Shown in pieces: positions 9,501 through 61,295 of a DNA stretch of 64,000 bases (position 1 is the first letter of the stretch; the number at the start of each line of letters is the position of its first letter). The position numbers were made by a program, and so were the translations under genes. The notes beneath the pieces are model-generated. The model saw nothing but the letters and a program-made list of their open reading frames with translations, was not told the DNA's origin and made no database searches. The DNA comes from a virus, in the IMG/VR virus record IMGVR_UViG_3300026197_000002, positions 28,711 to 92,710 of that record. One strand, given 5' to 3'.

Positions 9501-12500
9501 CACTACCCCATTTTTTTATAGCTTCTTGAACAATAGGTGTTTCTCTGTACCATGCAATATAATGATGTGCGTATTCATTAAGCAAAGTATTATTTTTTTG
9601 ATTAATTGCATCAATAAGAACTGTACTAGCTTTAGCAGCATTAACCTCATCAGTAAAACTATTATCAGCTAATAAAGATGTAATAATTTCTTCTCGTATG
9701 TTACTGTTTTTACTAAGCGTATTTGTTACTACGTTGGGTATATAATTTTCATCATAATTAGACATTGCATCATAGACTAAACTTGATGCAGGATTATCTG
9801 TAAAATAATATGCGTCATCAATATCGCCATCATAACCTTCATACTTATCTAAAATTTCTTGCGTACTTTCTATATTTTTTTTAGCAATATAGTGAAGTAA
9901 ACCTTTACCATCAGTGTTTAATTTTTTTAATATTACGTCTAAAATAACTTCTGTAGGAGAATAGTTTATACCTTCTAATGCTGACACCTCTCCTCCAAAA
10001 ACCATTTCATCCATAGAATTTTCTAATCCATCATTATAAATGTAAGTTTTGATTAAATCATCTACATCTTTATTTTCATATTCTGAATAAGATGGGGTTA
10101 TTACATTATATTGTCCTTTAGGTATTTTAATTTGTTGCTTTCCTACAATTCTTTTTTCTCCCTCAACATCTTCCTCATTAATATTAAAATTATTATTATT
10201 TATATAATCTTCGTTAATTTCAATAAAATATGGATTAGTAGAATATCTACTACCATAAGATTCTGCCATAAACCTTTGTGTAGTAAAAGATTTACCATAG
10301 TCTTTTGATAATTGTTCATAAGAAGGGTTTAAAATTAAATTACCGTCATTGTCAATTTTAGGTTTATTAGCTTGCCCTCTCCATAGAGAGTTTTTAAACT
10401 TTTGTTCAGATTCTTGTTCAAAAACTTTATCTTTATACTCATCTAATATAATTTTTTTCTGCTCTTTAGGTATTTGAAGTTCTGTAAGAATTTTGTTTAA
10501 ATCCCAATTATTCTTCTCTCCTTTACTAAATATTTGAATAGCCTTAGGAGATGCTAAAGAATCTGCAGCTTTTAATCTATAATTAATTTGATTATTATCC
10601 TCTTGTTCCAATTTAGGGTCATTGGTAATATCTAAAGATATTTTAGGATATAATTTTGTAAGTTTGTCTTGTAATGTTTCTCTTAAAGTTTTATCATCTA
10701 AAGAATCATTAGAAGTATCAACATCATCTGTTACAGGAGCATAAGTTTCAATAGGTTCATAATATGTTAATGCTAATTCAGTATCAAAATCTTCTTTATT
10801 ATCGTGATATTCTTTTAAATCATTTGTAGCATCTTTAATTTTTTGAACAGCTAATTGCATTTCTTTTGTTTCATTAGCATTTAATATTTCATAGAAGTTA
10901 TTTTTAGCATCATTATATAAACCTTCTGCCATAGATATATCAGACTCAATACCTTCTAACATTTCTACATCATTAATATTATCAGCAATATAATTCTTTA
11001 ATTCTGTTTTATGTTCAGTTAATTCTTGTTCAAATATCCTCATTTCATCATAAGCTACCTTCATAGCATCATAAGATTGCTTATTAATATCAGGCATAGA
11101 TTTAACAGATTCCACAGCATCAGATAACTTATCTTTTAACTTTTTCTGTGTAGCATCAATAGTTAATACATTAGGTAAATATGTAGTAAGTTTATCAACA
11201 TCATAATCTGACCCTGCAATACCTACTATCTCTGATGGCAACTGTATTACATTCCCTGTACTAGATGGTAGAAACTCCACAATTCTCATATTAGCTGCAC
11301 TATTAATACCTTGTGTTGGAATCCTAAATCCTACTATGGTTAATAACCTCTCATCTACTTCACCATTACGTATCATCCTATTAAACTCCTGTAAACCTCC
11401 TTTTAGACTATTAACATAGTTCTTATAACTAGGTGGTAAACTTAATCTAATTTCCATAGCCTTAGTCTTACCATCTTCTAAGGTATATACTGATAAATCA
11501 TTACTTTCTAAAAACTGCCCTTTTACCCTAGCAGCATTTTCATCTTCAAAAGTAGTAGATGCTACCTGAATAGCAGACATACCTGGTCTTTTCTCTTGTA
11601 TAACCTTGTTCATTATAGCAAATAAGATATTCTCTACCTTCTTACTATTCAATAACATATCTATAGTTATACCACCTCTACGTAACTGTCTAATAGAATC
11701 TATTATATTATCATGAGAACCTCTACTATGTGCTTCATCTTCTAGTACTTTAACAAGTTTATCTTTATTATCTACCTTATACCCTAGTACAGTACCATCT
11801 TCATCTTTAATATCTTCTATACCTAACTTCTCTAAAGTTCTATTATAAGCCTCCTCATATAAGTAATCTTGTATAGTATTGTATTCTTTAATAAGTTCTA
11901 TAGCTTTATCATTAATAGGTACACCATCTCTAATAAGATTAGATAATGCCATTTTTCTAAACTGTGTACCAGCAGTAACTTCTTTTTTAACCTTAGGATT
12001 AATATCTACCTGTATTCCAAAGTAATTATAATTAACACCTTGTGTGGCTGATGTATAATCTTTTAATACTACATTACCTAAATCATCATATAATTTAGCA
12101 CCCTCTTTCTTATTATCTAACTTTCTACCTACTTTATTAGCAGATTCAAACTGTAACATACCTACACCAGAATCTGCCATCTGCTTCATCATAGTAAATG
12201 ACTTCTTATATCTTATACTAGGATTACCTTCACTATCCATATCTACACTATACATAGCTGATGGTAATAATGGTGCTACGGAATGCTTATACATAGTGGG
12301 TTTATACAATCTCTGATTCTCATTAGCATCAGTATTATATGTATTATCATTACCAAAATATTGTGTCTTTAATACCTGAACATTAAAGTCTACGCTAGGT
12401 TTCCATTCAACAATCTCTTTAATAGCTTGTTTATGCTCCTTACTATTAGGAGAACTTTCTCTAAGTTCTCTCTCATTTAACATCTTAGTATATAAGTCAT

Positions 12501-15500
12501 ACTCATCCTCATATAACTTCTGATGTGTATCTAACCAATCTCCTGCTCTCCACATAGTAGACCTTACCATATCTAGTGTACCAAAGGCTTGACCATCTGC
12601 TTCTTCCATACCTAAATAAGCACTCATATAAGCAGATACTTTCTTATCTATATCTCCCTTATATCCATCTTTTTCAAACTCATCTCTAAACATACTTTCT
12701 AAGAACTCCCTAGTAGCTTGTTTAGTATCAACTTCTATATCATCTACAATTAGTGTTTTCTCTATATCAGTATTAGCTTCACCATCAAACATTCTAGGGA
12801 AATGTCTATCTAAGAATGTATTAACTTCTTCACCTGTTGCAGAAGTCTTTTTAGTACCATTAGTAGCACTACCACGTTTAGTAAAATCATCAGTACTCTT
12901 ATAATATGCTAAATCCCCGTGTATTAACTTAGACATCTCTAATGAGTATGCTTCCCTATTAATTACATATTTAGCTATTAAAGCAGCTTTTGCTTCACCT
13001 GCTGTAAGGGTTATTCCAATATCTTTTCTAGCTTTAATGTATTCATCTATAAACTGCTTACTTACTACAGTATCTACTATATCCAACTCTCTAATCCTAG
13101 CAACTTCTTGTTTTACCTCCTTTAACATATAATTAGTTAGAGCTTTTCTTAAAATATTAGCAGTATTAGTATCTTGTTCTTCACCTGTAATGAACTCTCT
13201 TATGAAAGCCATATCAGCTTCTGTATTTATTTTACCTGTATCATTTAGCTTAAATACATTATTAGTAACCTTACCATTCTCATTTATTCTAGGTAATATA
13301 TTACCACCAGCATCACTACTCAAATATTCTTGTATAGTCATATTCTTTATATCCTCTACAAGTGATTCATGAGTTTCATCACTAAACAATTGCCCTATCT
13401 TAATATCTTTAAAGAATCTTAACTCTTTACCTTTCTTATTATAATGTTTAACATCATCACCTATTTTATTAAAATGTAATTGTCTGGCTGAATGTATCTC
13501 ATTGATAAGATGGTCTTTATATATATTAAATATTGAATGTTCTAAATTCTTATCATTTTCAGTTTTATTTTTCTCTCTTTTTGCTATAAGACTTACAACA
13601 TTCTCATAACTAATAGGTAATAAATTATCCTTACCAACATATACAGAATACTCTACACCTCTATCAGCAGCTCGTAGGTAGGGAATATAACCGTGTAGAG
13701 TAGCATTTAAGTTTACAGCATATTTATCTATATCTGATAACTTTCTAGTCTTTTTACCCACATTATTAGAATCTTGATAACCATTTAATAATGCAACATC
13801 TACTTTAACACCTTCACCAATAAGTTTTAATATCTTATTATTATTAGTTTGCATATTAAATAATTGTGGTACATCTTCTTTCAACTTATCTAATATCTTA
13901 TTTTTATCAGCCTTATTAGATGTATGTTTTATCTTATTAAATACTAATGATAAATAACTGTTAAGACCAACAGCATATTCTGTTTCACCTTCACTATTGA
14001 ATGCTTGTAATTCTATTTCATCTTCATACTCTTGTTGAATATCTGCTAAACGTAGTAGTAGTTTGGTTACTACAGTGCCTTTTAATTCTTTTTCTAAATC
14101 TTCTTTTGATTTAATATCAGGTAATATATTAACTAATGATTTTGTTACAGAAGAAACTTCTTCTTCTTGTTCAAGATTTTCATAATAAGCACTATTGATA
14201 TTAATACCTATGTTAGATAATTTAGTAAAATCTAATGTTCCATTTTTACTAAAATGTTGTTCTATATTAGCTTTCCAACTATCTACTAATCTCTTAGCTA
14301 CTCTTTGACCAACAGCATCAATCATTTGGAATGAACCATCTTCTGTCCTATTAAGTATTCTAAATTCTAATTTATTCTTACCAAATGATTGCATAAACTG
14401 TATCTGTAATCTAGCGTGTTCAGCATCTACAACATCTTCTGTAACTCTATTACCATTTTCATCTACACCTTTTACTACAGTTTTAACACCTAATTTACTA
14501 CCTAATCTCTCTTTCAATAATTCTAATGAATATCTATCAGAATCATTTTTATCAATAAGTTCATCTATTTTTTCAATGAAGTTACTAAAATTATTACTAG
14601 GTGTATCAGCTAAACTATTTATAATCTTATTAAAGAATGCAGAAGGATTCACTAATTCAGGAGTACCTAAAACGTTATTCCTATCTACTACTATCTTACC
14701 ATCTTGTTTTACCATTTTAGGAATACCGTATACCAACATCTTGATAGGTCTAGGTAATCCATCTTTTGAACTGAAATATATATGTGCTTTACCTAATGGG
14801 TCATTTATCTCATCATAATCATCAGGATTTTTCTCTTTATTATCTGTTACTTCCTCATTCTTTTCATCTATATTATCATCTACTTTAAATTCTATACCAT
14901 ATTGTTTTACTCTATTAGTATGTTCTTTTACTATTTCTCTCCAAGAGTCTTCTTGCATTAATATGTTTGCTATATTTTTTAAACGCTCTTTTGTTTCAGC
15001 ATCATTAGTAGCTTGAAATTTTTGAACAATTTGACTAATAGTAATATTTCTTAAATCTTCTTTTGCTAAATTCAATCTACCATCTTTAATATCTATGGCA
15101 TTATAACCATATAATTCAGATAAATTAAAATCCCTATTACCTGAAAATAAATCTTCTGCTGTACCTTCACTAAATATCTTTTTCATTAAAACAGCACTCA
15201 TACCATTCATAAGAGCTTCTGTTTCAGCAATAGTTAATTTAATATCATCTAATTCAATAGCTCTATAATCTTCTTGTGATGTAGGATTTTGACTATGTGG
15301 GGTGGTATCTTTATATTTACCAGCATCAATATTCTTATATATATCTTCTCTTGTAACAGTCTTTTTAACAAAAATGCTTTTTATCATATTCCATAATTGC
15401 TGAAATATATTTTTACGAGTTTTAGCCGTTGGCTGAATTGAACCATCAGATAACATGTATTCTCTAAACTTTTCAGCAAGATATTCTTTATCAGCTAAGG

Positions 15501-18500
15501 TTTCTCCATAAGATTGTAGAATATCCTTGTATAACCTAGATTGTCTTTCAGTATCTGTTATCTCATCTACTAATGTTTGTTTTTCTTTATTAGTTAAAGC
15601 ATTTCTCCACACAACTTCAAAGGCTTCATGGTATGTAGTACCACCTTCTTCCATATTAGATACTACAACTTCACCTGTTGAAGTAAATAGTCCTAAACCT
15701 TTATTTCTAATTAAAGTATCAACTCTACTATATGGTACATTAGGGAATTTTTCTTTAAACCAAGAGGTTTCTTTTTCTATTTGCTTAGGTGATATTTTTA
15801 CATTAGTCTTTTTAAATATAGGTAATCTAAAAGTCACATTACCTAAATCTATATTATTAATATCAGGTTTTGTTGTGTCAGATGATTTCTCTAATTCTGC
15901 TAATTTTTCATTATAGTCTTTATCAATTGCATCTTTAGCATCTTGTTCAGTTTTAAAACCCATTTTAAAACCAGGTACTTTATACACCTTTTCACCTGAA
16001 ATAGTTTCTTCTTTAATATTATTTAAAGCATTATCTTTTTCTTTATTTAGTTCATCTTTTGTAGTAGCAACATTTTTAGAATCTTCAACAACCTCTTGTT
16101 TAACAGAAGTATCAACTGTTGTAGAAGGTTTTTTCTTACTATCTTCCACAACATCTTTTTTAACCTGTTGTTTCTGGGGTTCACTAGAAGGTTCTTTCCT
16201 AGATTCTTCTATAATCTCCTGTTTTACATTAGGTATTTCAGTAGATTCATATTCATTATATACAGCAGATTTATTTTCTGCTACCTTTTCTATATTATAT
16301 TTCCTCAAAGGTATACCATTATAAACCCTAGTATTAAGTACTTTATCAAATAAGTAATCTTTATATGTTGGAGATTGTTCTAACTTCAATGTTCCATTTT
16401 TTAATACAGGATATAAGAATGGTTTATTTAACATATCTTTATTAACCATATCTACACTAACATTCTTATATTTATTAGCTAAAAAGTTTTTTAATCTGTT
16501 ATATAATTTCCCTTTATTATTTTTTAAATCAGATAATCTAATAACTATTGGACTACCATCTTCAATAAAATCACCTAATTCTCCTGAATCTGTTGTGTTA
16601 TCATAATTAGGGATTGTAATAGTAGGATTCTTAGGGTCAGTAAAATTAAATGATATTTGAGATTTGGGATTTTTATTACCTACTTCATAAGAAATACCAT
16701 CCTTTGTAACTATAGCACCTGTACCATAGTTTAATAAACTATTAATAAGTCCTATATTATTTTTATCACTAAAAAATTTAATAGTTTTATCATTACCATC
16801 AACAGTAGGTAATGTTATAGTAGTATTAGAAACCTCTTTTTTAGGATTTAATACATGTTTTACTAATTCAATTATAGTTTTTAAATCTTGCTCATCATCT
16901 CCCCAACGTTTTTCTGTAACAGGTATCAACCTACCATCTGCTTGTAACAATACATTCCTACCTGTTTTTTTATCTACTTCAAATTCAAAGCTATATTCAT
17001 CTATTGGTATGCTATCTTTATTTTTATCTAATTTTGGGGCTATAATAACAGGTACTAACTTTCTTGACTTAGGAATATTTTTATCATCCAATGCTTTTCT
17101 AACACTAACAGGAGAATCCATTTTAATATACTCTCCACTAGACATTGCCGTAATAGTATATACATCTCCATCATTAACATTTTTATCAGTTATTGCTTCA
17201 AATAATGGAATATATCTATTACCATTAACATCTTTTTTATTTCTAGTAGTATTAATAACAGGATTACCATCTTTATCTAAAAATACAGCTATATGAGTAA
17301 CATTCTTATTATCAATAGCTTTTTTTATTATATTTTCAGCATATACAGATTTGTTATTTTTACCTTTACTTCTTTGTAAATAATCATCTAATAATCCTTC
17401 TTTTCTAAGAGATTCAACACTTCTTATTTTTACTTTTAATTTACCACCACCTTTTGATATATGGTCAGATATATGTTTATCTATTTGTTTTAATCTTACA
17501 GGATTGACACTTTTAGATTGTCTACTTGTATCTGATGTTAATATACTATTATCATGACTTCTAACAGCTTCTTTATATGTATTCCTAGTCCAAGACATAA
17601 ATGATATAGAATCTGCTGTATTCTCTAACTTAGATACTTCTTTTACATTATCTGAACGTTTATCTAGTGAATCTTTTTCATTAGTATATGATTCAGCTGT
17701 TTTTTTATCATTATTAGCTTTTCTCTTTTTCTCATTATCTAATTCTTCTTGTGTTTTCTCCTGTTGCTCATTAGTATCATCTAGGTTATCCTGTTTGGTA
17801 CTAGGTTTTTCTTGTGTAAATTTATTATTTTCTGGCTTATAGTATTTAATTAAATCTTTATTATATTTTCCATCATTAATATCTTCTTTAGCTTCATTTT
17901 TACTAAACCAAGTTAATGGTATACCATCAATTTTTAAAGATTTTAAACCTTCTATATAATAAACTTCTTGAGTTCCTGCTGCATTAGTAGTACTTTTTAA
18001 ATTCTTAATAGCTGCTGTTTTTAAATCTTCATATTCTTTATCACCTTTTTCTTGTGTAGGAGGTTTAACTTTTGGAGGAGTTTGATTCTTAACTTCAGCT
18101 ATTTTAGCATCATATTTAGCATTAATCCTATCATAAGCAATTTGAAAATCTGCTTCTACCCCTAATTCAAATTTTAAATCTAACGCAAGCTGTTTTTTTA
18201 TAGCTTTTACTACTTCCAAAGATTGGGTAGTTTTAGAATTTCCATTTAGTATTGATTTTATTACATCTTCTATTCTATCTGCATTTTGATTTTTTTTCGT
18301 TACAAGTATATTTCCATCTTTATCAAATCTAGCTTCTAATACTATTTTATCTCCTACTTTTCCAATAATTTTAAGATTCTCTATATTTGAAGAATTTATA
18401 TTTATATTATTGACATTTTGATAAACCATATCTGGTTTAGCATCATAGGCATCTAATTCAGCTTCTCTTTCAGATTCTAACTTCTCTATCTCATTTTGTT

Positions 18501-21500
18501 GTTGTTCTTTTAAATTAGAATCTTGATTACTTTCTTTTAAAGTTTTTCTATTCTTAACTTCAGCTATTTTAGCATTGTATTTAGCATTGATTTCATCTTC
18601 AAATAACAGGTCATTCAAATTACTATCTATAAGCTCTTGAACAAAGTTTAATCCTTCAGAAAAAGCTATAACTTTACTACCATCTTTCCTGTTTAAATAT
18701 AAATGTGCAATTATTTTCTTTAATTTTTCATCAGAAGTTCCTTTGTTTTTTTCTCTTTTTATTAAAGTTAAAATTTCTCTAATTTCATTTCTTAACTGTT
18801 TTTCTAAATCTTCTTTTGCTCTACCTTCAAAAACAGACTCGTCTATAGCTTTTAAATGAGCCATTCTTATAAGCCCTTTTGCTTTTACTTTTGAACTATT
18901 TTCTAATTCAGATTCTTTTTCAGCTTCTAATTTTTTTATCTCATCTTGTTGTTCTTGTGTAAGTTCTCCTTCTTGTGTAGTTGTAGTATCTTTTACATTA
19001 GGTTGAGTAGATGTAGATTCTAACGCTTCTAATTCTGCATCATATTTAGCATCAATTTGTTTTATAAGGGCTTCTTTAGTATCAGTATTTTTAAACCTAT
19101 GTTCATCTATAGGTATAGAAATTCCCCAAGAAGTTCCTAATTTCCCTCTACGATACCAACTTATTCCTTTAATATTAGCTTTTGCTTTTTTTCTATTATC
19201 TTCTATTCTAGTTCTTTGTGAATCTATTGATTGATTATTATTAACAACATCATCTCCTTCTATTGTACCATCTTCATTAGTTAATACAGTTTCAGTACCA
19301 TCATTATTTTCAGTAGGTACTTCTCTACTTTTTACAGCAACAGGTGTATGTTCCCATTCATTATTAATAGCTAAGTTATTAACATCAATTATAAATTTAT
19401 TTACAATATTTGGTACAATATCATCTTTGGTAGTAGTAGTTTCTCCCTTTTTATTTGGTTTATTAAGTTCTTCTTTACCTGCAAAAACTTGTGTTAAATT
19501 AGAAGATTTTAATATTTTATCAAATATATTATCTGCTAATTTAGATAAAGATTCAAAAGTTGATACATCTATATCTTTAAAGTTGATGCCATTAGTAGCT
19601 TTTTCTACATAAGTTTTAAAATCTTCATTTTCAATACCTTCTACTTTACCATTTGCTTCTATAAGTTTCTTTAAAAAACTTTCACGTAATACATCTTTTA
19701 ACTCTTTTACCGAAACTATTTTTTCCTTTAACAGACCCATAAAAGCATTTTTCTTTCCTTTAGTTTCTGCATCAGTTAATTTACTTAAAAATTTAGATAA
19801 CTGCTGTATAGCAAATACTTGTTTCTTAGATAATTGGTCATACTGTTCTTTTCCAAAATTACCATCTTTATCTAATATAGAATCTTCTGTTGCATCTGTT
19901 ATATCAAACTCTTTCTGTATACCTACATTTTCAGGTTCAGTTGGTGGATTATTTTGAGCATTATCAATTTTAGCTTTTGTAGTACTTTTAGCAGATTGCA
20001 CAGCAAGAGAATTTGTATTAGCTTCTGTTAAATTAGTTTCAGCTTTTTTAGCTTCTTCTTTTAATTCTTCTGCTGTTTTACTATTTTTTATATTAGTAGT
20101 AGCTTCATTAACTGCTAACTCCTTAATTTCTTTATCTCTTTTTTTATTAGCTTTATCTATCTTTTTAGCAGTCTTTTTACCTTCTTTTCTAAAACCTTCT
20201 ATAATAGATTCTTTATTCTTTTGGAAATCTTTAATCTTATCCAAGGTGTTACTATAACTTTCTAGGATACCCTTGTGATACCTAACTTCTTTACTGTCGT
20301 CTTTATTTAATGCAATATCAACAGCTCTTTTAGTAACATCTTTATCTACTAATCCTTGTAAATATTCAGTTGCTTCTTCTGGTTTAATTTCATCTATTAA
20401 ACTTTGTAACTCATCTTTAATAGAATCTAATTCTTTATCTATTTTATTAATCTCTTCATCTTTTGTTGCATTAGCAAGTTCTGCATTTTTACTTTGAGCT
20501 TTTCCTTTAAGAGTTTCTATTTTATCAGTAATACCTTCTCTTTTCTTATTAATCTTTTCTAATTCTTTAGCAGCATCTTCTCCAAATACATTAGATACTT
20601 CTTTTGGGTCATTTAATATATCATTAACCGTATTATTAAATTCTTCCTTTTGTGTATAATCTTCTAAGAACTTTTGAGATTTTACAACATCTTCTTGCAT
20701 AATATTAGCCCTTGTAATAAATGCAGATAAATGTCCTGTATATAAAGCATTAGCTATATCATCTGATTGTTGCATAGCTTGTAAATCAGATAATACCTTA
20801 ATACCTTCTTTTACATGCTTAGCTTTTTTCTTAGCTATATCTTTATAATTCTCACCACCAAATTTCTCCAATTCAGCATCTGTATAATCAGTTAATCCTT
20901 TTAATTGTGCCTCTGTATAGTCAGGTACATTTTCTAAATTATTATAATCACTAACATATTTATCAAGAGCTTCTCTATCTTTTTCAGGTACTCTCTCTAA
21001 TACTTTTGAAATTCTAGCTTCATCTTTTTGGTCTAAAATAATCTGAAAATCTTTTTCAGACATATTTACCCCAAATTTTAAAGTATCATAATCTTTTGAA
21101 AGTTGTTCAAGATATTTAGCTTTTTCTGTAACACTATTATCAGCTTTTTGAGCTTCTTCAAATGATGCTAGTAAATGCTCCCCCACCCCTGTAGAAAAAG
21201 CTCTTTTCATAGTTAATTCAAATAAGTCATCTTGTAGATTCTTCAAACCTTTCCTAGATTTCTCCATATCTTCCAAGTTACCACTATCATTAACTTTATC
21301 ATACAAGTTAGATATTTTATTAGTAATATTTTCATAAGCCTGCATATCAGAAATCATACTATTACGTAGAGTTCCATATTGCTCTTTAAGGTCTTCTGTG
21401 CTAGTATCAGGTTTTGAAATAGCATTCATAATAACCTTTTGACCACCACCACCTAATGCACCTAATGTAAAAGCTAATGCTCCTTCTTCATCAAAAGTTC

Positions 21501-22746
21501 TATCAGCATAATGTTCCATCTCTGTCAATAAAGCATCTATTGCAAATATACTAGATACTCCTTTTTTACCATCAATACCTGCTTGAACACCTGTTTTTTC
21601 AGCAAACTGATTATTTAATTCCTCTAAACCTTCTTGACCCATTTCAGATAAAACTGCTTTTTTAAAGTTTTCAGGTTTGATAGTTTCTTCTACTTTATCA
21701 AGAGATTTTGTCAAAGTAGCTGTAGGAGCAGCTTTAAAAGCCGCTTTATCTGCAACAGCGTTTTTAGCAGCCCTTCTAGCTTTAGCTATATGTTTAGGAG
21801 ATTTGAATAACATGCCAACAGATGTTAGGTTTAAAGGCATATTCATCATCATATTAATATTAGTAGCTGTACTATAACCATTAATACGTTGCTCTTTAAT
21901 AAATTCTTCTTCTGTTAAACCTCTCTTTTTACTTAATTTCTGTAACTTATCTCTATTTTTAGAATCTTTCCAATACTTCTCTACTTGGTCTGCTGCTGCT
22001 ACACCACCCATTACACCTTCTGTATAAGACAATGCTGCAGATGTTGCTACATGTGGTGCTAATTGATTAGGAGCTTTCATAATAGCATAATTAATACCTT
22101 TGCCAACTTTATTAGCTTGCATTAAATTAGCTATTTTTTTAGAATTAGCGTATGCTTGACCCATAGCTCTAAACCCTGAACCTAATAATTTACCAACTCC
22201 TGCACCTGTTACAGCAAATTCTCCGATACTCTCAAGTAATCCTGAAAATTGTTGCATATACCAAGCACTATCTCCTAAATCCCATGTAGCATTAGGATTA
22301 GCTCTATGTAATTTACCAAAAGGATTATGCACAGCTTCAAAAGTTTCTTGAATATCTTTCTGCATCTCCATTGTAGTACCAGGGTCTACAACACCTAATA
22401 ACTCACCAACACCACCACCTATACCTGCTCCTATATGACCCACATTTTGCACTATACCCATAGGTATATCTGCTATTAAATTAGCACCAACAGTTAATAA
22501 CTCACTAAAAAATCCTTGATTTCTAGCTCTTGCAGCATCTATATCAGCTCTATCATTAAATACACTACGTGTAGGGTCATCATAAGCGTGTTTCCATAAT
22601 CCTGTATCTTCATAATATGTAGATTTACCATGATTATATTCTGTATTTATTGTATAATCTGCTGCACCACCACCCAATGTAGTATTTATAGCTCTATCTA
22701 AAGCATCTGATGATGGATTATATTCCTTTTTTATAGGGTCAGGCAT
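6568..22746 (-). CDS. virion-associated two-barrel RNA polymerase polyprotein (crAss-type), fused to cargo, zincin-like and effector-like domains
   Basis: 5392 aa; GFRIPTQ...GSDYDVDKL catalytic loop (DxDxD at 11194-11208); EEADGQ, FESANKVG, YFGIQVD, GTQFRK motifs; zincin-like YHEAFE (15616-15630); N-terminal Gly/Ala-rich hydrophobic helices. Confidence 0.92.
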   Translation of the reverse strand: MPDPIKKEYNPSSDALDRAINTTLGGGAADYTINTEYNHGKSTYYEDTGLWKHAYDDPTRSVFNDRADIDAARARNQGFFSELLTVGANLIADIPMGIVQNVGHIGAGIGGGVGELLGVVDPGTTMEMQKDIQETFEAVHNPFGKLHRANPNATWDLGDSAWYMQQFSGLLESIGEFAVTGAGVGKLLGSGFRAMGQAYANSKKIANLMQANKVGKGINYAIMKAPNQLAPHVATSAALSYTEGVMGGVAAADQVEKYWKDSKNRDKLQKLSKKRGLTEEEFIKEQRINGYSTATNINMMMNMPLNLTSVGMLFKSPKHIAKARRAAKNAVADKAAFKAAPTATLTKSLDKVEETIKPENFKKAVLSEMGQEGLEELNNQFAEKTGVQAGIDGKKGVSSIFAIDALLTEMEHYADRTFDEEGALAFTLGALGGGGQKVIMNAISKPDTSTEDLKEQYGTLRNSMISDMQAYENITNKISNLYDKVNDSGNLEDMEKSRKGLKNLQDDLFELTMKRAFSTGVGEHLLASFEEAQKADNSVTEKAKYLEQLSKDYDTLKFGVNMSEKDFQIILDQKDEARISKVLERVPEKDREALDKYVSDYNNLENVPDYTEAQLKGLTDYTDAELEKFGGENYKDIAKKKAKHVKEGIKVLSDLQAMQQSDDIANALYTGHLSAFITRANIMQEDVVKSQKFLEDYTQKEEFNNTVNDILNDPKEVSNVFGEDAAKELEKINKKREGITDKIETLKGKAQSKNAELANATKDEEINKIDKELDSIKDELQSLIDEIKPEEATEYLQGLVDKDVTKRAVDIALNKDDSKEVRYHKGILESYSNTLDKIKDFQKNKESIIEGFRKEGKKTAKKIDKANKKRDKEIKELAVNEATTNIKNSKTAEELKEEAKKAETNLTEANTNSLAVQSAKSTTKAKIDNAQNNPPTEPENVGIQKEFDITDATEDSILDKDGNFGKEQYDQLSKKQVFAIQQLSKFLSKLTDAETKGKKNAFMGLLKEKIVSVKELKDVLRESFLKKLIEANGKVEGIENEDFKTYVEKATNGINFKDIDVSTFESLSKLADNIFDKILKSSNLTQVFAGKEELNKPNKKGETTTTKDDIVPNIVNKFIIDVNNLAINNEWEHTPVAVKSREVPTENNDGTETVLTNEDGTIEGDDVVNNNQSIDSQRTRIEDNRKKAKANIKGISWYRRGKLGTSWGISIPIDEHRFKNTDTKEALIKQIDAKYDAELEALESTSTQPNVKDTTTTQEGELTQEQQDEIKKLEAEKESELENSSKVKAKGLIRMAHLKAIDESVFEGRAKEDLEKQLRNEIREILTLIKREKNKGTSDEKLKKIIAHLYLNRKDGSKVIAFSEGLNFVQELIDSNLNDLLFEDEINAKYNAKIAEVKNRKTLKESNQDSNLKEQQQNEIEKLESEREAELDAYDAKPDMVYQNVNNININSSNIENLKIIGKVGDKIVLEARFDKDGNILVTKKNQNADRIEDVIKSILNGNSKTTQSLEVVKAIKKQLALDLKFELGVEADFQIAYDRINAKYDAKIAEVKNQTPPKVKPPTQEKGDKEYEDLKTAAIKNLKSTTNAAGTQEVYYIEGLKSLKIDGIPLTWFSKNEAKEDINDGKYNKDLIKYYKPENNKFTQEKPSTKQDNLDDTNEQQEKTQEELDNEKKRKANNDKKTAESYTNEKDSLDKRSDNVKEVSKLENTADSISFMSWTRNTYKEAVRSHDNSILTSDTSRQSKSVNPVRLKQIDKHISDHISKGGGKLKVKIRSVESLRKEGLLDDYLQRSKGKNNKSVYAENIIKKAIDNKNVTHIAVFLDKDGNPVINTTRNKKDVNGNRYIPLFEAITDKNVNDGDVYTITAMSSGEYIKMDSPVSVRKALDDKNIPKSRKLVPVIIAPKLDKNKDSIPIDEYSFEFEVDKKTGRNVLLQADGRLIPVTEKRWGDDEQDLKTIIELVKHVLNPKKEVSNTTITLPTVDGNDKTIKFFSDKNNIGLINSLLNYGTGAIVTKDGISYEVGNKNPKSQISFNFTDPKNPTITIPNYDNTTDSGELGDFIEDGSPIVIRLSDLKNNKGKLYNRLKNFLANKYKNVSVDMVNKDMLNKPFLYPVLKNGTLKLEQSPTYKDYLFDKVLNTRVYNGIPLRKYNIEKVAENKSAVYNEYESTEIPNVKQEIIEESRKEPSSEPQKQQVKKDVVEDSKKKPSTTVDTSVKQEVVEDSKNVATTKDELNKEKDNALNNIKEETISGEKVYKVPGFKMGFKTEQDAKDAIDKDYNEKLAELEKSSDTTKPDINNIDLGNVTFRLPIFKKTNVKISPKQIEKETSWFKEKFPNVPYSRVDTLIRNKGLGLFTSTGEVVVSNMEEGGTTYHEAFEVVWRNALTNKEKQTLVDEITDTERQSRLYKDILQSYGETLADKEYLAEKFREYMLSDGSIQPTAKTRKNIFQQLWNMIKSIFVKKTVTREDIYKNIDAGKYKDTTPHSQNPTSQEDYRAIELDDIKLTIAETEALMNGMSAVLMKKIFSEGTAEDLFSGNRDFNLSELYGYNAIDIKDGRLNLAKEDLRNITISQIVQKFQATNDAETKERLKNIANILMQEDSWREIVKEHTNRVKQYGIEFKVDDNIDEKNEEVTDNKEKNPDDYDEINDPLGKAHIYFSSKDGLPRPIKMLVYGIPKMVKQDGKIVVDRNNVLGTPELVNPSAFFNKIINSLADTPSNNFSNFIEKIDELIDKNDSDRYSLELLKERLGSKLGVKTVVKGVDENGNRVTEDVVDAEHARLQIQFMQSFGKNKLEFRILNRTEDGSFQMIDAVGQRVAKRLVDSWKANIEQHFSKNGTLDFTKLSNIGININSAYYENLEQEEEVSSVTKSLVNILPDIKSKEDLEKELKGTVVTKLLLRLADIQQEYEDEIELQAFNSEGETEYAVGLNSYLSLVFNKIKHTSNKADKNKILDKLKEDVPQLFNMQTNNNKILKLIGEGVKVDVALLNGYQDSNNVGKKTRKLSDIDKYAVNLNATLHGYIPYLRAADRGVEYSVYVGKDNLLPISYENVVSLIAKREKNKTENDKNLEHSIFNIYKDHLINEIHSARQLHFNKIGDDVKHYNKKGKELRFFKDIKIGQLFSDETHESLVEDIKNMTIQEYLSSDAGGNILPRINENGKVTNNVFKLNDTGKINTEADMAFIREFITGEEQDTNTANILRKALTNYMLKEVKQEVARIRELDIVDTVVSKQFIDEYIKARKDIGITLTAGEAKAALIAKYVINREAYSLEMSKLIHGDLAYYKSTDDFTKRGSATNGTKKTSATGEEVNTFLDRHFPRMFDGEANTDIEKTLIVDDIEVDTKQATREFLESMFRDEFEKDGYKGDIDKKVSAYMSAYLGMEEADGQAFGTLDMVRSTMWRAGDWLDTHQKLYEDEYDLYTKMLNERELRESSPNSKEHKQAIKEIVEWKPSVDFNVQVLKTQYFGNDNTYNTDANENQRLYKPTMYKHSVAPLLPSAMYSVDMDSEGNPSIRYKKSFTMMKQMADSGVGMLQFESANKVGRKLDNKKEGAKLYDDLGNVVLKDYTSATQGVNYNYFGIQVDINPKVKKEVTAGTQFRKMALSNLIRDGVPINDKAIELIKEYNTIQDYLYEEAYNRTLEKLGIEDIKDEDGTVLGYKVDNKDKLVKVLEDEAHSRGSHDNIIDSIRQLRRGGITIDMLLNSKKVENILFAIMNKVIQEKRPGMSAIQVASTTFEDENAARVKGQFLESNDLSVYTLEDGKTKAMEIRLSLPPSYKNYVNSLKGGLQEFNRMIRNGEVDERLLTIVGFRIPTQGINSAANMRIVEFLPSSTGNVIQLPSEIVGIAGSDYDVDKLTTYLPNVLTIDATQKKLKDKLSDAVESVKSMPDINKQSYDAMKVAYDEMRIFEQELTEHKTELKNYIADNINDVEMLEGIESDISMAEGLYNDAKNNFYEILNANETKEMQLAVQKIKDATNDLKEYHDNKEDFDTELALTYYEPIETYAPVTDDVDTSNDSLDDKTLRETLQDKLTKLYPKISLDITNDPKLEQEDNNQINYRLKAADSLASPKAIQIFSKGEKNNWDLNKILTELQIPKEQKKIILDEYKDKVFEQESEQKFKNSLWRGQANKPKIDNDGNLILNPSYEQLSKDYGKSFTTQRFMAESYGSRYSTNPYFIEINEDYINNNNFNINEEDVEGEKRIVGKQQIKIPKGQYNVITPSYSEYENKDVDDLIKTYIYNDGLENSMDEMVFGGEVSALEGINYSPTEVILDVILKKLNTDGKGLLHYIAKKNIESTQEILDKYEGYDGDIDDAYYFTDNPASSLVYDAMSNYDENYIPNVVTNTLSKNSNIREEIITSLLADNSFTDEVNAAKASTVLIDAINQKNNTLLNEYAHHYIAWYRETPIVQEAIKKWGSEESLVQAIGEQAVKQKGEAWSWWTKFVNWLLGDLKKLSKLEKEQLTKVLTDAFLTRQDLNDLQIKKESPSSDQSNQEYNNNSSKNQQKPLTKKNLFTVKPKQYADNKAAIKASVATQFIGFGEGIPNSSTELYRQQAGKYANTGNYSSNDVIFVSIGGKRGNNQIRKEQQYKTITEALKALEAGATLITDNEDYIHYNPRTKQQRPIDLSSDEFEKEYGLYNSGEKRLYENLKFEGYNYSEQTVDGQVLGVWTKNESKPLSPAQLNQEKYNKAIRDSLSEISKRNPINPKMNRKSAQNRMLELQKEIMELPENVRQLMSPISDDNMKDIVKEIRSLELGKPKSEIDGAYDKISMNQLFSVSTQDGLFSNFLAGKELIGIGALHGTSHALFSNYDIKFDIESLRNKKTKKLFTIPFNYNKDEEGNPIFSGAIDVDGNLISETLSALLNSAVDVAKDPYIFYLNVSPTTAGVFYSMIRMGISPLVAAKFMRNPVIRDYAKAKRDAESELTSLVPSAVRNKVLSKYNANLKTPIKDYNDMDSVLDSMLKGSEIDSSDARTMIYIYDNMNRISSNLSKVMSGINADTKGFRKDMYTLHKATEDMLDPAFENFSGLKDVQNYSTVSKANSIVYEGKKALAGYYKMFNKSAYRNTIKFIEDNAKFQKGYNAEKLVKTINDDFKQYLLEYNKRDFMTRGKVLLDSANEDSLGKRIIALRQNDTYKNNDFFNSLDVQLNYNKEGKDLIKFTNRKLDSIEANKLIDSMRELSEINPELYKDLIAVNLSQNGVGNTFRSFIELIPAEDFIGLMSDSINDIESIIGNFPEQFLRQKKNREFVELYDFNNLPKELPIVYYTVANFTGMPEYSLQAMDSLKLKYTTVQPLGTSQVKNYSTSVPENYTPPQSSEVQADEKSYNKVVQEVANSFEGLNPKELPSYDTYIESNNLSPVTYLKNYINSRSTLDLSEKGWNNLNNKADEILKNCF
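18085..18588 (-). repeat. 39-bp direct repeat (18085-18123 and 18550-18588, 2 mismatches) encoding NAKY[D/N]AKIAEVKN
   Basis: attcttaacttcagctattttagcat(ca/tg)tatttagcatt; a 16-bp partial third copy at 19037-19052. Confidence 0.9.
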
Positions 22747-56188: not shown

Positions 56189-56390
56189 CTTCTGTATAAT
56201 GTTTAATTGTCCTATTTATCATATTTTGATTAATATGTTTTTTATAAGAATCTAAGTTCTCATAATATATATCCTTTAATTGAGGATACTTATTCAATAT
56301 CTCACCACATTGCTCAATAAAGATGTGTGGGTATTTTAACATCTTATCAATATATTTACGGTGTATCTTTTTAGCTTTTTTACTTTTCAT
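56172..56390 (-). CDS. hypothetical protein
   Basis: 72-aa ORF within operon, A-rich leader. Confidence 0.55.
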   Translation of the reverse strand: MKSKKAKKIHRKYIDKMLKYPHIFIEQCGEILNKYPQLKDIYYENLDSYKKHINQNMINRTIKHYTEDVKQY

Positions 56391-56400
56391 AATTTTATAT

Positions 56401-56955
56401 TTAATATTCTATACGATAACCTAATTCAGTACTATTCTCTAATTTAATATCTTCCAATAAAATATTCTTTAATTCTTCAAACTTAGCATCTAATCTACCT
56501 CCTAGATAATCTTGCTCACTCTGGAAACTTATATAAACACCTGGGGATTCCTTGTCTATACTATACCACCCACCATTATAATACATAGGTACAGGAATTA
56601 TATAATCCATGTTGTCATCCTCTATCACATCATGTGCTACCATTAAATCTAATACTATCTGACATACATTATGGAAATCAAACTTCCTCCTACTATCTCT
56701 TACAAAATGAAATTTAACTATAATAGGAGAACTCCTATCTATATCTACATCTTTAAATATCTTTTCAAATTCATTATCCCTAGTCTTATAATTAGTGTAT
56801 TCCTTCTTACTAACACTGAACTTCTGTACCCCTAACTTCTGTAAATACTTTTTAACAGTCTTACTATGAAATACCCCTTTAGAAGTTTTAACTTTACTGT
56901 TCTTAGAACTAGGAACATTGTTGGGAATAAATATACAATCATCTAATAAATTCAT
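56401..56955 (-). CDS. rusA: RusA-like Holliday junction resolvase
   Basis: VPSSKNS...RRKFDFHN...LDLM...IEDDN (RusA acidic residue pattern). Confidence 0.8.
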   Translation of the reverse strand: MNLLDDCIFIPNNVPSSKNSKVKTSKGVFHSKTVKKYLQKLGVQKFSVSKKEYTNYKTRDNEFEKIFKDVDIDRSSPIIVKFHFVRDSRRKFDFHNVCQIVLDLMVAHDVIEDDNMDYIIPVPMYYNGGWYSIDKESPGVYISFQSEQDYLGGRLDAKFEELKNILLEDIKLENSTELGYRIEY

Positions 56956-56973
56956 AATTTTATACAGTTTTTA

Positions 56974-57005
56974 CAAACATAGTTAAAACTATATATATCT
57001 ACAAA
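56974..57005 (-). promoter_or_regulatory. Bacteroidota sigma-A-type promoter TTTG-N20-TATGTTTG heading the late operon
   Basis: Exact consensus 18 nt upstream of the RusA-like start. Confidence 0.8.
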
Positions 57006-57617
57006 TAATATGGGAAATAAAATGCTATTATATTTAGGTGTGAAAAAGGCAGAGATACAGCTGTAACGTTTTACTGCACGTAGTGTAAGTACTACAAACA
57101 AGTTTTATTAAATGTTTTATAGTTTCTTGTTTTAACGTTTAACAAGTGTTTACCTGTTTGTAAAACTAACGTTTTACAGAGGGAAAAAGTTGCCTATTAA
57201 TAGGTTATTAACAAAACATTAACAACTACCCTATATTTGTTAGGAACTTCTAGGAAATCCTGTATTGTAAAAGCTGTTCCTATAATAATTACTTGTAGTA
57301 TATACACCATCAATATAATACCCTAGACCTAAAAATAATTTTTGAAAAATATTATTTAACAATGAGGAATTTATGAGATTCTTATGTGGGTAATACTATA
57401 TCCCCCCTATTCTTATAATTTGGAGTATTTTTAAATTTAGCGTATTTGTAAATGTGTGGGGTTATTTTACAAAAAATTCCCTATTAAAAAACAAAAATCC
57501 AATTATCCCCCTCAAAAATAAATTAACAACAATTATTTTTACTAGGTTTCCACAGCCTACAATTCTACGTTGCCACTAGGTTTCACCACAGGGTCAAGAG
57601 TCTACAAAGATGGAAGA

Positions 57618-57652
57618 AAAACCTTCCAGGTTTTCTCTTTGAAGAACACCTC
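57618..57652 (+). promoter_or_regulatory. hairpin + GAACACCTC element, copy 1 (candidate vRNAP early promoter)
   Basis: AAAACCT-TCC-AGGTTTT; GAACACCTC at 57644. Confidence 0.7.
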
Positions 57653-57700
57653 ATACATAGTTTGATTGAATTTTAAATTAATTATTAAATACATAGAACT

Positions 57701-57889
57701 ATGAAGAATATACAAACACTTGAAGACGCTAAGAAAATATGCAAATCTTATAATACTGTAGACGGCATCAAAGATGAAAAGATTTTGCTAAATTTGGAGA
57801 AGCAATGGAATGCAAACCCTAAAAGATTCGTAAGATTCCCTTACGGGACTTACGACTTAAAGGACAAGTACTTGCTTATATGGAAATAA
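57701..57889 (+). CDS. early hypothetical protein
   Basis: 62-aa ORF between element 1 and a hairpin. Confidence 0.7.
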   Translation: MKNIQTLEDAKKICKSYNTVDGIKDEKILLNLEKQWNANPKRFVRFPYGTYDLKDKYLLIWK

Positions 57890-57899
57890 TTTGTCTTAT

Positions 57900-57933
57900 A
57901 TATCCTACTCTCTAACAAGAGTAGGGTATATTT
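57900..57933 (+). terminator. terminator-like hairpin
   Basis: TATCCTACTCT-ctaaca-AGAGTAGGGTA then tattt (weak U-tract). Confidence 0.65.
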
Positions 57934-57937
57934 AAAG

Positions 57938-57973
57938 AACAACCTTACAGGTTGTTTCTGTTAAGAACACCTC
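57938..57973 (+). promoter_or_regulatory. hairpin + GAACACCTC element, copy 2
   Basis: AACAACCT-TAC-AGGTTGTT; GAACACCTC at 57965. Confidence 0.7.
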
Positions 57974-58027
57974 ATTTATATATTGAGATAAGGTATTCTT
58001 ATCTCTCAACTTTAAAATTATATAGTT

Positions 58028-58246
58028 ATGTATTACATACTTAGCACCTGTCACATTACAGGTAAAATTGAAAGAGTAAGATACTTTGACAGTATTAATG
58101 AAGCTGTAGACGCTCTTACAAAGATGAACGTAATGGAACATCAAAGTTTTTCTATTCACACTGACCAAGCTGCTATTTTGTATAGCAGCTTGGAAAAAAA
58201 ACTCTGTCAATTTCCAGCTGAAAAGCTGGTAAAGCACGGGGATTAA
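58028..58246 (+). CDS. early hypothetical protein
   Basis: 72-aa ORF with A/T-rich leader, followed by terminator. Confidence 0.65.
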   Translation: MYYILSTCHITGKIERVRYFDSINEAVDALTKMNVMEHQSFSIHTDQAAILYSSLEKKLCQFPAEKLVKHGD

Positions 58247-58250
58247 TTGC

Positions 58251-58289
58251 AAAGCTCTTCTAGCATCTAGTAGAAGGGCTTTTTTTTTT
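58251..58289 (+). terminator. intrinsic terminator
   Basis: AAAGCTCTTCTA-N8-TAGAAGGGCTTT + long T run. Confidence 0.85.
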
Positions 58290-58320
58290 GTTTTTTCAAC
58301 TTTTAAAATTAAATATCGTT

Positions 58321-58557
58321 ATGAAGATTATAAGTAGACGTGGTGTAACAGCCACAATAAGTAACGGGTTCGTTAGACCTAAAAAAGATATAAAGACCTC
58401 CAATGGATTGGTATTTAGCGGTAGTAAGTACTTATTACTTACTACCAACCAAGGTAGTTACGTCAAGTTTTGCAGTGCTTTCAACTTCCTTGATGCAGTA
58501 AAGCACTACTGTATTAATGAGCGTGTTAATTTACAGGATTGGTATAAAGTCCTGTAA
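58321..58557 (+). CDS. early hypothetical protein (start ATG 58321)
   Basis: Track start (TTG 58288) lies in the terminator T-run; ATG 58321 follows an A-rich leader. Confidence 0.65.
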   Translation: MKIISRRGVTATISNGFVRPKKDIKTSNGLVFSGSKYLLLTTNQGSYVKFCSAFNFLDAVKHYCINERVNLQDWYKVL

Positions 58558-58562
58558 GTTAT

Positions 58563-58598
58563 AAGATTCTCCTAGTAGATACTAGGAGGGTCTTTTTT
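58563..58598 (+). terminator. intrinsic terminator
   Basis: AAGATTCTCCTAGT-agat-ACTAGGAGGGTCTT-TTTT. Confidence 0.85.
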
Positions 58599-58603
58599 AC
58601 AAT

Positions 58604-58638
58604 TAACCCTTACAGGGTTATTCTATGAGGAACACCTC
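58604..58638 (+). promoter_or_regulatory. hairpin + GAACACCTC element, copy 3
   Basis: TAACCCT-TAC-AGGGTTA; GAACACCTC at 58630. Confidence 0.7.
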
Positions 58639-58718
58639 ATTTAGTTGTGGAGTTTAATTATTTAAAAAACAGGGTTGTAAAGGCAATCCTTGTGCATTAT
58701 GCACTAAATGTTAATAAT

Positions 58719-59057
58719 ATGAAAATGTTAGAAGAAGGAGAAAGCAGAATTTTAACAGGACTTTGCATAGAAAAAAGTCTTATGGAAAAAAAAGATTCTA
58801 ACGGCAACAATCGCTACGCCGTTAGTATAGAAAACCACCCACGAACATTGTATGTTGGAGAATGGTGTAAGTTTGAAACAGGGGATACCTTACAAGTTAC
58901 CCTAACAGGAAAAAAGTTTAATGATAAAATCTACGAGAACGTAGGAAAAATCATTAATACAACCGCTGCCTACAACAAAGAATTAGTAAGAAAAGAAACT
59001 GCCATTCTTAACGCTAAAAAGAACTTCCAAGAGGAAACAGGTATTCAATTATTTTAA
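58719..59057 (+). CDS. early protein, possible OB-fold (start likely ATG 58719)
   Basis: Beta-strand pattern ILTGLCIEK...RYAVSI...FETGDTLQVTLTGKKFNDKIYENV. Confidence 0.55.
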   Translation: MKMLEEGESRILTGLCIEKSLMEKKDSNGNNRYAVSIENHPRTLYVGEWCKFETGDTLQVTLTGKKFNDKIYENVGKIINTTAAYNKELVRKETAILNAKKNFQEETGIQLF

Positions 59058-59072
59058 TTGTACCTGTTTCAC

Positions 59073-59105
59073 AATACATACCCTAGAAATAGGGTATGTA
59101 TTTTT
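59073..59105 (+). terminator. intrinsic terminator
   Basis: AATACATACCCTA-GAAA-TAGGGTATGTATT-TTT. Confidence 0.9.
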
Positions 59106-59111
59106 AAAACC

Positions 59112-59144
59112 ACCCTTACAGGGTTATACTGTTAAGAACACCTC
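59112..59144 (+). promoter_or_regulatory. hairpin + GAACACCTC element, copy 4
   Basis: ACCCT-TAC-AGGGT; GAACACCTC at 59136. Confidence 0.7.
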
Positions 59145-59149
59145 TTTTA

Positions 59150-59585
59150 TTTATTGATGTGGTGTTATAGTATAGTACTATAACATACAATCAACGTGCA
59201 AATCTTCAAGTATGTATAGGACTTAGGTTTGTTAGAATAATGTTCCCAACATTATGTAGTTGATTTTGGTGGATGTTTTTTGGTTATGTGTAAGTAGTAG
59301 AAACTACCTTATCACACCCCTATAAACACTCCACACATCACTATAATATCCTACGATAACCTCGTAGTATCTAGTTTTACCTGCAAGTATGCGTAGAACT
59401 TAGGTTAGATATTATACATTATTGGTCTATATATATCCAAAATATATACACCATATAAATACCTACTGCCAACCTATAAAGCAGTTTAACGGTATTTAAC
59501 CCAAAGAACGTAAGAGTTCACTACATATAATATAATGTAGAAGTTACTATGAAAGACCATAGGGTAAGTAATTAAACCTGCCCAA
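59150..59585 (+). ncRNA. candidate large structured RNA or structured leader
   Basis: No ORF of 60 aa or more; about 10 consecutive stem-loops, e.g. TGTTATAGTA/TACTATAACA, ATAATGTT/AACATTAT, CTACGA/TCGTAG, GAAC-gtaaga-GTTC, CTACAT/ATGTAG, CTATG/CATAG. Confidence 0.5.
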
Positions 59586-59613
59586 TATTATTATTAACAT
59601 TAAAACAGATATT

Positions 59614-59946
59614 ATGAAGGATTTAGAAAAATTAGAAAATGCTATTGCAGTGGCTAAATTAAAACTGCAAGAAGAAACTTCCAGATTAAAGAAAGATATA
59701 CAATATGCAGAAAATGCACGTGTATCTTACCTACATGAAAACTTTTTCTTATTTGAAAAAGTTTTCGCTGCTGAAAAAGCAGAATTTTTCGTAAAAAATC
59801 TTCCTGCTTGGGAGAAAGAACTAATATCAGAAAATATTGTTTCTGATATTAGTTCTGATGTAAACATCAGAATTTGGTGTAAAAAAATAAAGCAAGTTTC
59901 AGAACTACAAGAACTTTCGTATAATGTTCTGAAACTAAAAGTTTAA
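59614..59946 (+). CDS. early hypothetical protein
   Basis: 110-aa helical ORF, A-rich leader. Confidence 0.7.
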   Translation: MKDLEKLENAIAVAKLKLQEETSRLKKDIQYAENARVSYLHENFFLFEKVFAAEKAEFFVKNLPAWEKELISENIVSDISSDVNIRIWCKKIKQVSELQELSYNVLKLKV

Positions 59947-60049
59947 ACTTTTAATAGCTATCCACATATAGCTTTAAGGAAATATAACTCTCTTGTAGAA
60001 GTGAGGTATATAAACCAAATGTGGAGTGTAATTCTCTTATGAATTAAAA

Positions 60050-60139
60050 GACAGTACTGAACCCAAGTAATAAGCCTGGCAGAGGAATTGGTGATAGGTG
60101 TAAAAAACCTTATGGTAGGTTCAAATCCTACTACTGTCG
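60050..60139 (+). ncRNA. tRNA-like RNA 1 (non-canonical)
   Basis: Acceptor GACAGTA/TACTGTC, T-arm GTAGG-TTCAAAT-CCTAC; enlarged irregular D region. Confidence 0.65.
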
Positions 60140-60196
60140 CTAAATTATTATTTAACTTTAAAGAGGTACAGTTGAAATACTGTACCTCATATTACT

Positions 60197-61149: not shown

Positions 61150-61295
61150 GCTGATATTTCCCAGAAATGGAGAATGTAAGCCCTTAAATGGGATAAGTTT
61201 GAGTTATAAATTCCTTATACTCAAATGAAGGCAGCAAGTTGGATACTTGCGTTTTATATATCTTAATTTTATTCCTGTATAAAAAACAAAGACAT

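Follow-up and report, generated by a model that had tools for sequence, protein, structure and literature searches.

The repeated element and its four copies

The present study concerns the crAss-like phage contig IMGVR_UViG_3300026197_000002 (92,710 nt, 28% G+C), the final 64 kb of which represent the window that was analyzed (64,000 nt) and to which all coordinates below refer unless stated otherwise. Four copies (E1 to E4) of one 56-nt element were found on the same (+) strand, all pointing rightward and all located within the first 1.5 kb of a rightward gene block of ~38 kb, and they are considered here as candidate early promoters. Each copy consists of a 5-8 bp stem with a 3-nt loop, followed by the 9-nt box GAACACCTC and then by the tetranucleotide T(T/G)GA (hereafter TKGA), as listed below.

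E1, 57610..57665, + strand: hairpin at 57618-57634 (7 bp, AAAACCT-TCC-AGGTTTT), box GAACACCTC at 57644-57652, TTGA at 57662-57665
E2, 57931..57986, + strand: hairpin at 57938-57956 (8 bp, loop TAC), box at 57965-57973, TTGA at 57983-57986
E3, 58596..58651, + strand: hairpin at 58604-58620 (7 bp, loop TAC), box at 58630-58638, TGGA at 58648-58651
E4, 59102..59157, + strand: hairpin at 59112-59124 (5 bp, loop TAC), box at 59136-59144, TTGA at 59154-59157

The initial annotation of this DNA had described four intergenic copies of an inverted repeat of 5-8 bp with a 3-nt loop, each followed by an invariant box 18 nt after the loop center. The coordinates of the copies proved to be exact and all four are on the + strand, with perfectly paired stems of 7, 8, 7, and 5 bp and loops of TCC, TAC, TAC, and TAC. 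The box starts at 57644, 57965, 58630, and 59136, in each of the four cases exactly 18 nt past the loop center. The conserved unit was found to be longer (56 nt) than described, with the copies being 71-82% identical to the reference copy. Downstream of GAACACCTC, TKGA begins after 9 nt in all copies and reads TTGA in E1, E2, and E4 and TGGA in E3. An alignment of the four copies contained 30 invariant columns out of 58, which included CCTT-N-CAGG, a T two bases past the AGG arm, the letters CT, T, and A between that T and the box, the 9-mer itself, and T(T/G)GA, and conservation ended sharply on both sides.

Within the AT-rich region in which it lies, the box has the highest G+C content. Since the exact 9-mer is confined to these four sites on one strand of the whole 92.7 kb contig, with no occurrence on the other strand, in a genome of 28% G+C, and since a leave-one-out weight matrix assigned 39-61 bits to the copies, at most 12 bits to every other position of the contig on both strands, and ~1 bit to the peaks of shuffled genomes, a chance origin of this four-copy family is excluded.

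Pairing, loop and stability of the hairpin

Covariation within the stem, which had also been claimed, was recovered when the pairs were counted. Among the eight stem pairs, four were invariant, three were compensatory (A:T/C:G twice and A:T/T:A once), and one was lost in the shorter stems, with 87.5% of the stem cells in the four copies being paired. The covariation score was 0.333 versus 0.127 in shuffles, only 6 of 500 of which reached the former value (494 fell below it), and sliding the stem partners against each other destroyed the pairing. This covariation rests on four sequences and is supportive, not conclusive.

In the loop, the two outer letters never vary and are asymmetric, being T and C on the top strand and G and A on the template strand, and the template-strand loop thus reads 5'-GNA-3' in all four copies (GGA in E1 and GTA in E2-E4), as had been proposed. 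Since the outer stem letters vary and yet pair while an asymmetric loop is kept, this pattern favors a structure over the binding site of a symmetric dimer, a point that four sequences cannot settle. The hairpin was the predicted fold on both strands, with a modest predicted stability as single-stranded DNA (-3 to -7 kcal/mol); its closing pair is T:A and its stem is AT-rich outside CCT/AGG.

Genes, terminators and a candidate RNA around the elements

E1 opens the rightward block and lies downstream of a 660-nt divergent intergenic region. The hairpins of E2-E4 each start 7-10 nt past a strong terminator-like hairpin (-18, -20, and -18 kcal/mol, with z of -4.5 to -5.6), in agreement with the earlier observation that a terminator-like hairpin directly precedes copies 2-4. 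The features that accompany the elements, including the open reading frames (ORFs) o1 to o4, are as follows.

57701..57889, + strand: o1, 62 aa, downstream of E1; no family match
57898..57931, + strand: terminator-like hairpin after o1, -18 kcal/mol, z -5.6, weak U-tract; ends 7 nt before the E2 hairpin
58028..58246, + strand: o2, 72 aa, downstream of E2; no family match
58251-58282: terminator before o3, the sole signal ahead of o3
58321..58557, + strand: o3, 78 aa; no element of its own, only a terminator upstream
58563..58594, + strand: terminator-like hairpin after o3, -20 kcal/mol, U-run; ends 10 nt before the E3 hairpin
58719..59057, + strand: o4, 112 aa, downstream of E3; no family match
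59073..59102, + strand: terminator-like hairpin after o4, -17.9 kcal/mol, U-run; ends 10 nt before the E4 hairpin
59154..59612, + strand: ORF-free structured stretch downstream of E4, a candidate early non-coding RNA, fold z -5.3

The gap between the element end and the start codon is 36 nt for E1 and o1, 42 nt for E2 and o2, and 68 nt for E3 and o4, and ~470 nt without an ORF follow E4. The stretch at 59154-59612 folded far better than its shuffles as RNA (z of -5.3 on the + strand versus -2.9 on the - strand). It echoes the long and very highly transcribed early intergenic stretches that are present at the start of the rightward block of phage phi14:2. A stable RNA hairpin starts within two bases of TTGA in both E2 and E4, and that of E2, with a stability of -13 kcal/mol, begins at the GA of TTGA. 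A 36-nt direct repeat was observed inside the ORF-free stretch, with copies at 59204 and 59381. An ARAGORN search of window positions 56000-64000 yielded no tRNA or transfer-messenger RNA (tmRNA), and no Rfam match came near any gathering score; known RNA families and tRNA or tmRNA were dropped as explanations of the elements.

ORFs o1-o4 are mutually unrelated in sequence, o1-o9 had no Pfam or PHROGs match, and the early proteins o4 and o6 had no relatives in IMG/VR. The similarity of the elements is not a residue of segmental duplication because the edges of conservation are sharp and the flanking ORFs are unrelated. The repeated layout of terminator, element, and small gene or RNA looks like that of phage early regions with dedicated promoters. 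On the basis of this context, it is well supported, though short of certain, that the elements are a distinct phage-specific class of early transcription signals.

Two alternatives bear on this arrangement. The repeats may mainly be recombination modules, i.e., composite terminator/promoter cassette borders, the similarity of which is maintained by gene shuffling, with a promoter of any kind inside them. The recurrence of a terminator, a spacing of 7-10 nt, an element, and an orphan ORF unrelated to its neighbors fits this explanation, as does the absence of comparable long repeated regulatory units from the relatives tested. The promoter early stem-loops (PeSLs) of T4-type phages, which are small composite terminator/promoter sequences, mediate exchange in plastic regions (PMC4122927), and they resemble the present units in flanking small orphan early genes in such a region (PMC2839356, PMC4122927). 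However, the PeSL promoter is of the host sigma70 type and its stem-loop is the terminator itself (PMC2839356, PMC4122927), whereas a separate triloop hairpin is fixed 18 nt from a non-host box in the present phage. The terminator hairpins also differ between the cassettes, only the 56-nt element being conserved. Recombination would, moreover, account for the similarity and not for the signal, and is compatible with a promoter function; as the principal explanation, we regard it as improbable.

The element may alternatively act in RNA, as part of a long transcript initiated upstream of E1, in which it might serve as a processing site, a leader element, or a nut-like signal for antitermination. 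RNA would form the hairpin just as readily, and the nut sites of phage lambda also combine a hairpin with a linear box, but with the box preceding the hairpin. Read-through of a terminator must occur because o3 has only a terminator upstream, which also speaks for an RNA-level role. Nevertheless, the 660 nt upstream of E1 contained no full host-type promoter on the + strand (TTG/TTTG plus TAnnTTTG) from which such a transcript might start, it is implausible that 1.5 kb would hold four nut sites that each follow a terminator instead of preceding it, the distance to the start codon varies (see above) and E4 has no ORF, and the GNA loop lies on the strand that is not transcribed into + RNA. This explanation is the least probable of those that we weighed, and very little credence is given to it.

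Several other identities were considered and dropped: a Shine-Dalgarno or anti-Shine-Dalgarno role of ACACCTC, in view of the varying start-codon distance; iterons or an origin, in view of the spacings of 321, 665, and 506 nt and the position of each copy upstream of a gene; and integron attC-like sites.

The 660-nt divergent region contains features of its own, namely, a direct repeat (ACTAGGTTTCCACAG at 57541-57555 and ACTAGGTTTCACCACAG at 57575-57591) and two C-runs, CCCCCC at 57403-57408 and CCCCC at 57508-57512, which are odd at 28% G+C. The repeat and the C-runs may represent a regulator site, an origin, or a packaging signal.

The genome and its virion RNA polymerase homologue

The two ends of the contig share the same 320 nt with three mismatches (window 63681-64000 corresponds to genome 1-320). 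Because of this overlap, the genome is essentially complete at ~92.4 kb, with a circular map or a terminal repeat, despite the "linear, 63%" label of the record. It shows the usual crAss layout: a leftward block (window 3176-56955) with TerL, the portal, and the major capsid protein, and the rightward block, which runs from window ~57600 across the contig junction and on through helicase genes. TerL was at most 39% identical to anything among 5.8 billion proteins and ~32% identical to named Crassvirales, and by this sequence measure the phage is a deep, so far solitary lineage. A 273-aa protein with leucine-rich repeats (Pfam LRR_14, E = 7e-33; L238 3558-4379), which is unusual for a phage, is also encoded in the rightward block.

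A gene for a two-barrel virion RNA polymerase (RNAP) had been assumed in the initial annotation, and a homologue of the gp66 type was identified in the leftward block.

6568..22746, - strand: virion RNAP homologue, 5392 aa; the C-terminal half (roughly residues 3200-5392) matches phi14:2 gp66 (PDB 6VR4), E = 7e-18

In this ORF, GSDYDVDKL aligns with the catalytic GSDFDIDKM of phi14:2 gp66 (DxDxD motif), while neither half of the protein had a Pfam or PHROGs match. A three-copy DNA repeat lies in the N-terminal half of the gene (18085-18123, 18550-18588, and 19037-19052; genome 46795, 47260, and 47747) and was the only other repeat family that the self-BLAST finder returned for this genome. A phage sigma factor was dropped as the reader of the elements because Sigma70_r2, r4, and r4_2 had no match at E <= 1 in the whole genome. 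A T7-like RNAP was also dropped; PF00940 had no match in the genome, in a search that control genomes could not validate, and the likeness of E3 to the start of a T3 promoter was judged to be a coincidence.

Host-type promoters and the possible use of host RNA polymerase

Promoters of the Bacteroidota primary sigma factor have TTG at -33 and TAnnTTTG at -7. Canonical signals of this type (TTG/TTTG, 17-23 nt, TAnnTTTG) were found ahead of leftward late genes at window 57005, 45968, 38680, and 36866, including the following one.

56974..57005, - strand: Bacteroidota host-type promoter TTTG-N20-TATGTTTG, ahead of the first leftward gene

The middle promoters of phi14:2 that we extracted (before g070, g075, g108, and g110) share the same TTG/TAnnTTTG host form. 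In contrast to these promoters of the same genome and of phi14:2, none of the four elements matched TTG/TTTG-17-23 nt-TAnnTTTG; near-matches to TAnnTTTG in E1 and E3 occupy different alignment columns, and there is no conserved TTG at the right spacing. The mismatch to the host promoter that the initial annotation had pointed out is, therefore, real, with canonical signals preceding late genes, and a host sigma-A promoter was dropped as an identity for the elements. Sigma-54 and extracytoplasmic function (ECF) geometries were dropped on spacing: the distance from the AAC of the box to TKGA is 14 nt as opposed to the 16-18 nt of an ECF spacer, and a CGT-type -10 is absent.

The main rival to a virion polymerase as the reader is host RNAP equipped with a specificity factor that escaped recognition, such as a host alternative sigma factor (possibly one of the ECF type), a divergent phage sigma factor, or an appropriator. 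A dimeric phage regulator would then bind the palindrome as a double-stranded operator and turn the early units on or off together. The GAAC in the box resembles the AAC core of ECF-type -35 boxes, TKGA provides a second conserved block downstream of the box, palindromes of 17-19 bp are typical operators, and the crAss-like phage cr55_1 is annotated with a sigma factor. Furthermore, rifampicin moderately affected early transcription in phi14:2 (10.1101/2020.03.07.982082). On the other hand, the genome-wide sigma factor searches and the ECF spacing described above do not support such a factor, and the very first genes cannot depend on a factor that the phage itself makes. The stem also departs from what a symmetric dimer predicts, which is fixed half-sites around a free center; in the elements, the outer letters differ and still pair, and the asymmetric loop is what is fixed. 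Taken together, we consider this rival to be unlikely, albeit worth serious attention.

Searches for the element in other genomes

A covariance-model search in related Crassvirales had been proposed as a check, and it found nothing: in 22 related IMG/VR crAss-like records, phi14:2, and cr55_1, the best hits of a model of the element scored less than 20 bits, with E of 0.03-0.05 per genome, i.e., chance. Pattern scans for the hairpin core plus the box gave 2 matches in IMG/VR and at least 120 in JGI metagenomes, and those listed are chance matches in G+C-rich coding DNA. Megablast and distant blastn searches of the element region against GenBank phages returned no match, and neither a hairpin-anchored k-mer scan nor an intergenic 9-mer scan of IMG/VR TerL loci revealed anything analogous. 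The self-BLAST family finder, which recovered all four copies in the present genome as a positive control, was also applied to four complete relatives and to cr55_1 and detected no repeated regulatory unit comparable to the element. Nor did anything comparable emerge when the heads of the early blocks of cr55_1, phi14:2, and crAss001 were inspected by self-BLAST and for their hairpins. This absence agrees with the study on phi14:2, in which no motif was shared upstream of early transcripts.

Three observations were made in other genomes during these searches. The crAss-like record IMGVR_UViG_3300001450_005553 carries four same-strand copies of GATTGAGTGT at 2323, 3559, 3627, and 4043, three of which are preceded by AAGGGTyaTT; they sit 3.6-5.3 kb upstream of TerL and may be a private promoter box of that phage. 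A single hairpin with a 7-bp stem and a 3-nt loop, TTGGGGA-gta-TCCCCAA, is present in phi14:2 (~98029), ~80 nt upstream of g111, its first rightward gene, and may be due to chance because it is unique there. In crAss001, a 900-nt non-coding gap between gp95 and gp96 holds three copies of a AGAnTTACTTCAA-containing repeat, ~242 nt apart (96272-96787).

Discussion

The elements described herein invite a comparison with the promoters of coliphage N4 (Schitoviridae), which are read by its virion RNAP gp50. N4 has three such promoters (P1-P3), clustered in the first-injected 10% of its genome; they are conserved from -17 to +1 and contain a GC-rich heptamer centered at -11, the template-strand loop is formed by G(-10), G(-11), and A(-12) with a sheared G:A pair, and the variable stem letters need only pair (PMC4496689). 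The present elements share with P1-P3 the small number of copies and their clustering where the early region begins, a small hairpin with a 3-nt loop reading 5'-GNA-3' on the template strand, GGA in E1 being like N4 P2, and variable stem letters that keep pairing; a giant polymerase is packaged in the N4 virion and a homologue gene for a virion polymerase is present here. However, the enzyme encoded here is of the two-barrel gp66 type whereas that of N4 is T7-like, an AT-rich stem closed by T:A takes the place of the GC-rich N4 heptamer with its C:G closing pair, and conservation extends 43 nt past the loop center and includes an invariant 9-mer, whereas it stops at +1, 11 nt past the center, in N4. 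Of the analogy to N4 that the initial annotation had drawn, the triloop, its GNA sequence, the clustering, and the covariation are consequently retained, while the GC-rich heptamer with its C:G closing pair is missing and the promoter geometry looks different. By analogy, the elements may work like N4 promoters, but are not members of the N4 family.

A precedent with a two-barrel enzyme is provided by the Thermus phage P23-45, the first genes of which are preceded by a phage-specific motif that is read by gp96, a virion-borne RNAP of this type (PMC10770324). That pre-early motif was identified by aligning upstream regions and has been retained in phages carrying the enzyme, and the report makes no mention of a hairpin (PMC10770324). 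It differs from the present case in being AT-rich and in having been mapped by the sequencing of transcription start sites and by chromatin immunoprecipitation sequencing (PMC10770324), while the elements here are known from sequence.

Our overall reading, to which we assign about an even chance, is that the elements are phage-specific early promoters, most likely read by the injected gp66-type virion RNAP. The four elements would start the first four rightward transcription units, three with small orphan ORFs and one with a structured non-coding RNA, and an intrinsic terminator would insulate each unit from the preceding one. Injected virion RNAP, alone or with a co-injected factor, would read the elements. 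The virion RNAP is the most economical reader because no other non-host specificity factor was detectable and because these are the first genes of the block; the arguments for and against its taking this role are, in our estimation, evenly balanced. Recognition would involve the GAACACCTC box at a fixed distance from an upstream hairpin with the template loop 5'-GNA-3'. The most likely start is at or just past T(T/G)GA, ~40 nt from the loop center, which would place the hairpin near -40 as an upstream module; the start might alternatively lie among the purines that surround the G of GAACACCTC, at a distance of 16-20 nt from the loop center, which would give a more N4-like geometry. That the polymerase recognizes the hairpin in an extruded or single-stranded form is a tentative proposition, held with distinctly less confidence than the identity of the reader, and that it thereby converged on the same promoter logic as the virion polymerase of N4, a T7-like enzyme to which it is unrelated, is more doubtful still. 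The interpretation as hairpin promoters put forward in the initial annotation thus stands in part: a discrete promoter-like class of non-host type does exist at the head of the rightward block, while the GC-rich heptamer and C:G closing pair of N4 were not found.

A number of points weigh against this reading. The promoter assignment rests on sequence and context, and a 17-19 bp palindrome upstream of a box also has the look of a repressor or activator operator beside a promoter. In N4-type promoters, extrusion of the hairpin is driven by supercoiling and stabilized by single-stranded DNA-binding protein (SSB); for the present hairpins, extrusion at physiological supercoiling is doubtful because the predicted stability is only -3 to -7 kcal/mol and the stem is AT-rich with a T:A closing pair, unlike the GC-rich heptamer of N4. 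The family has only four members, and there are no relatives close enough to add covariation; the element appears to be lineage-specific in sequence, and the generality of its architecture is not supported by the searches described above. Moreover, the early transcripts of phi14:2 have no detectable shared upstream motif, and phi14:2 gp66 efficiently transcribes unrelated single-stranded DNA (M13) (10.1101/2020.03.07.982082).

Crassvirales dominate among the phages of the human gut and also occur commonly in the environment, and the manner in which their injected two-barrel RNAP finds early genes has been addressed by one experimental study, on phi14:2, in which there was no shared motif. The element reported here is a compact candidate signal with separable parts, namely, the stem, the GNA loop, the 9-mer box, and TKGA, and may be synthesized without phage culture. 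If the proposed reading is true, it would represent the first defined promoter for the crAss virion RNAP family, and would show whether structure-specific promoter recognition arose twice among virion polymerases.

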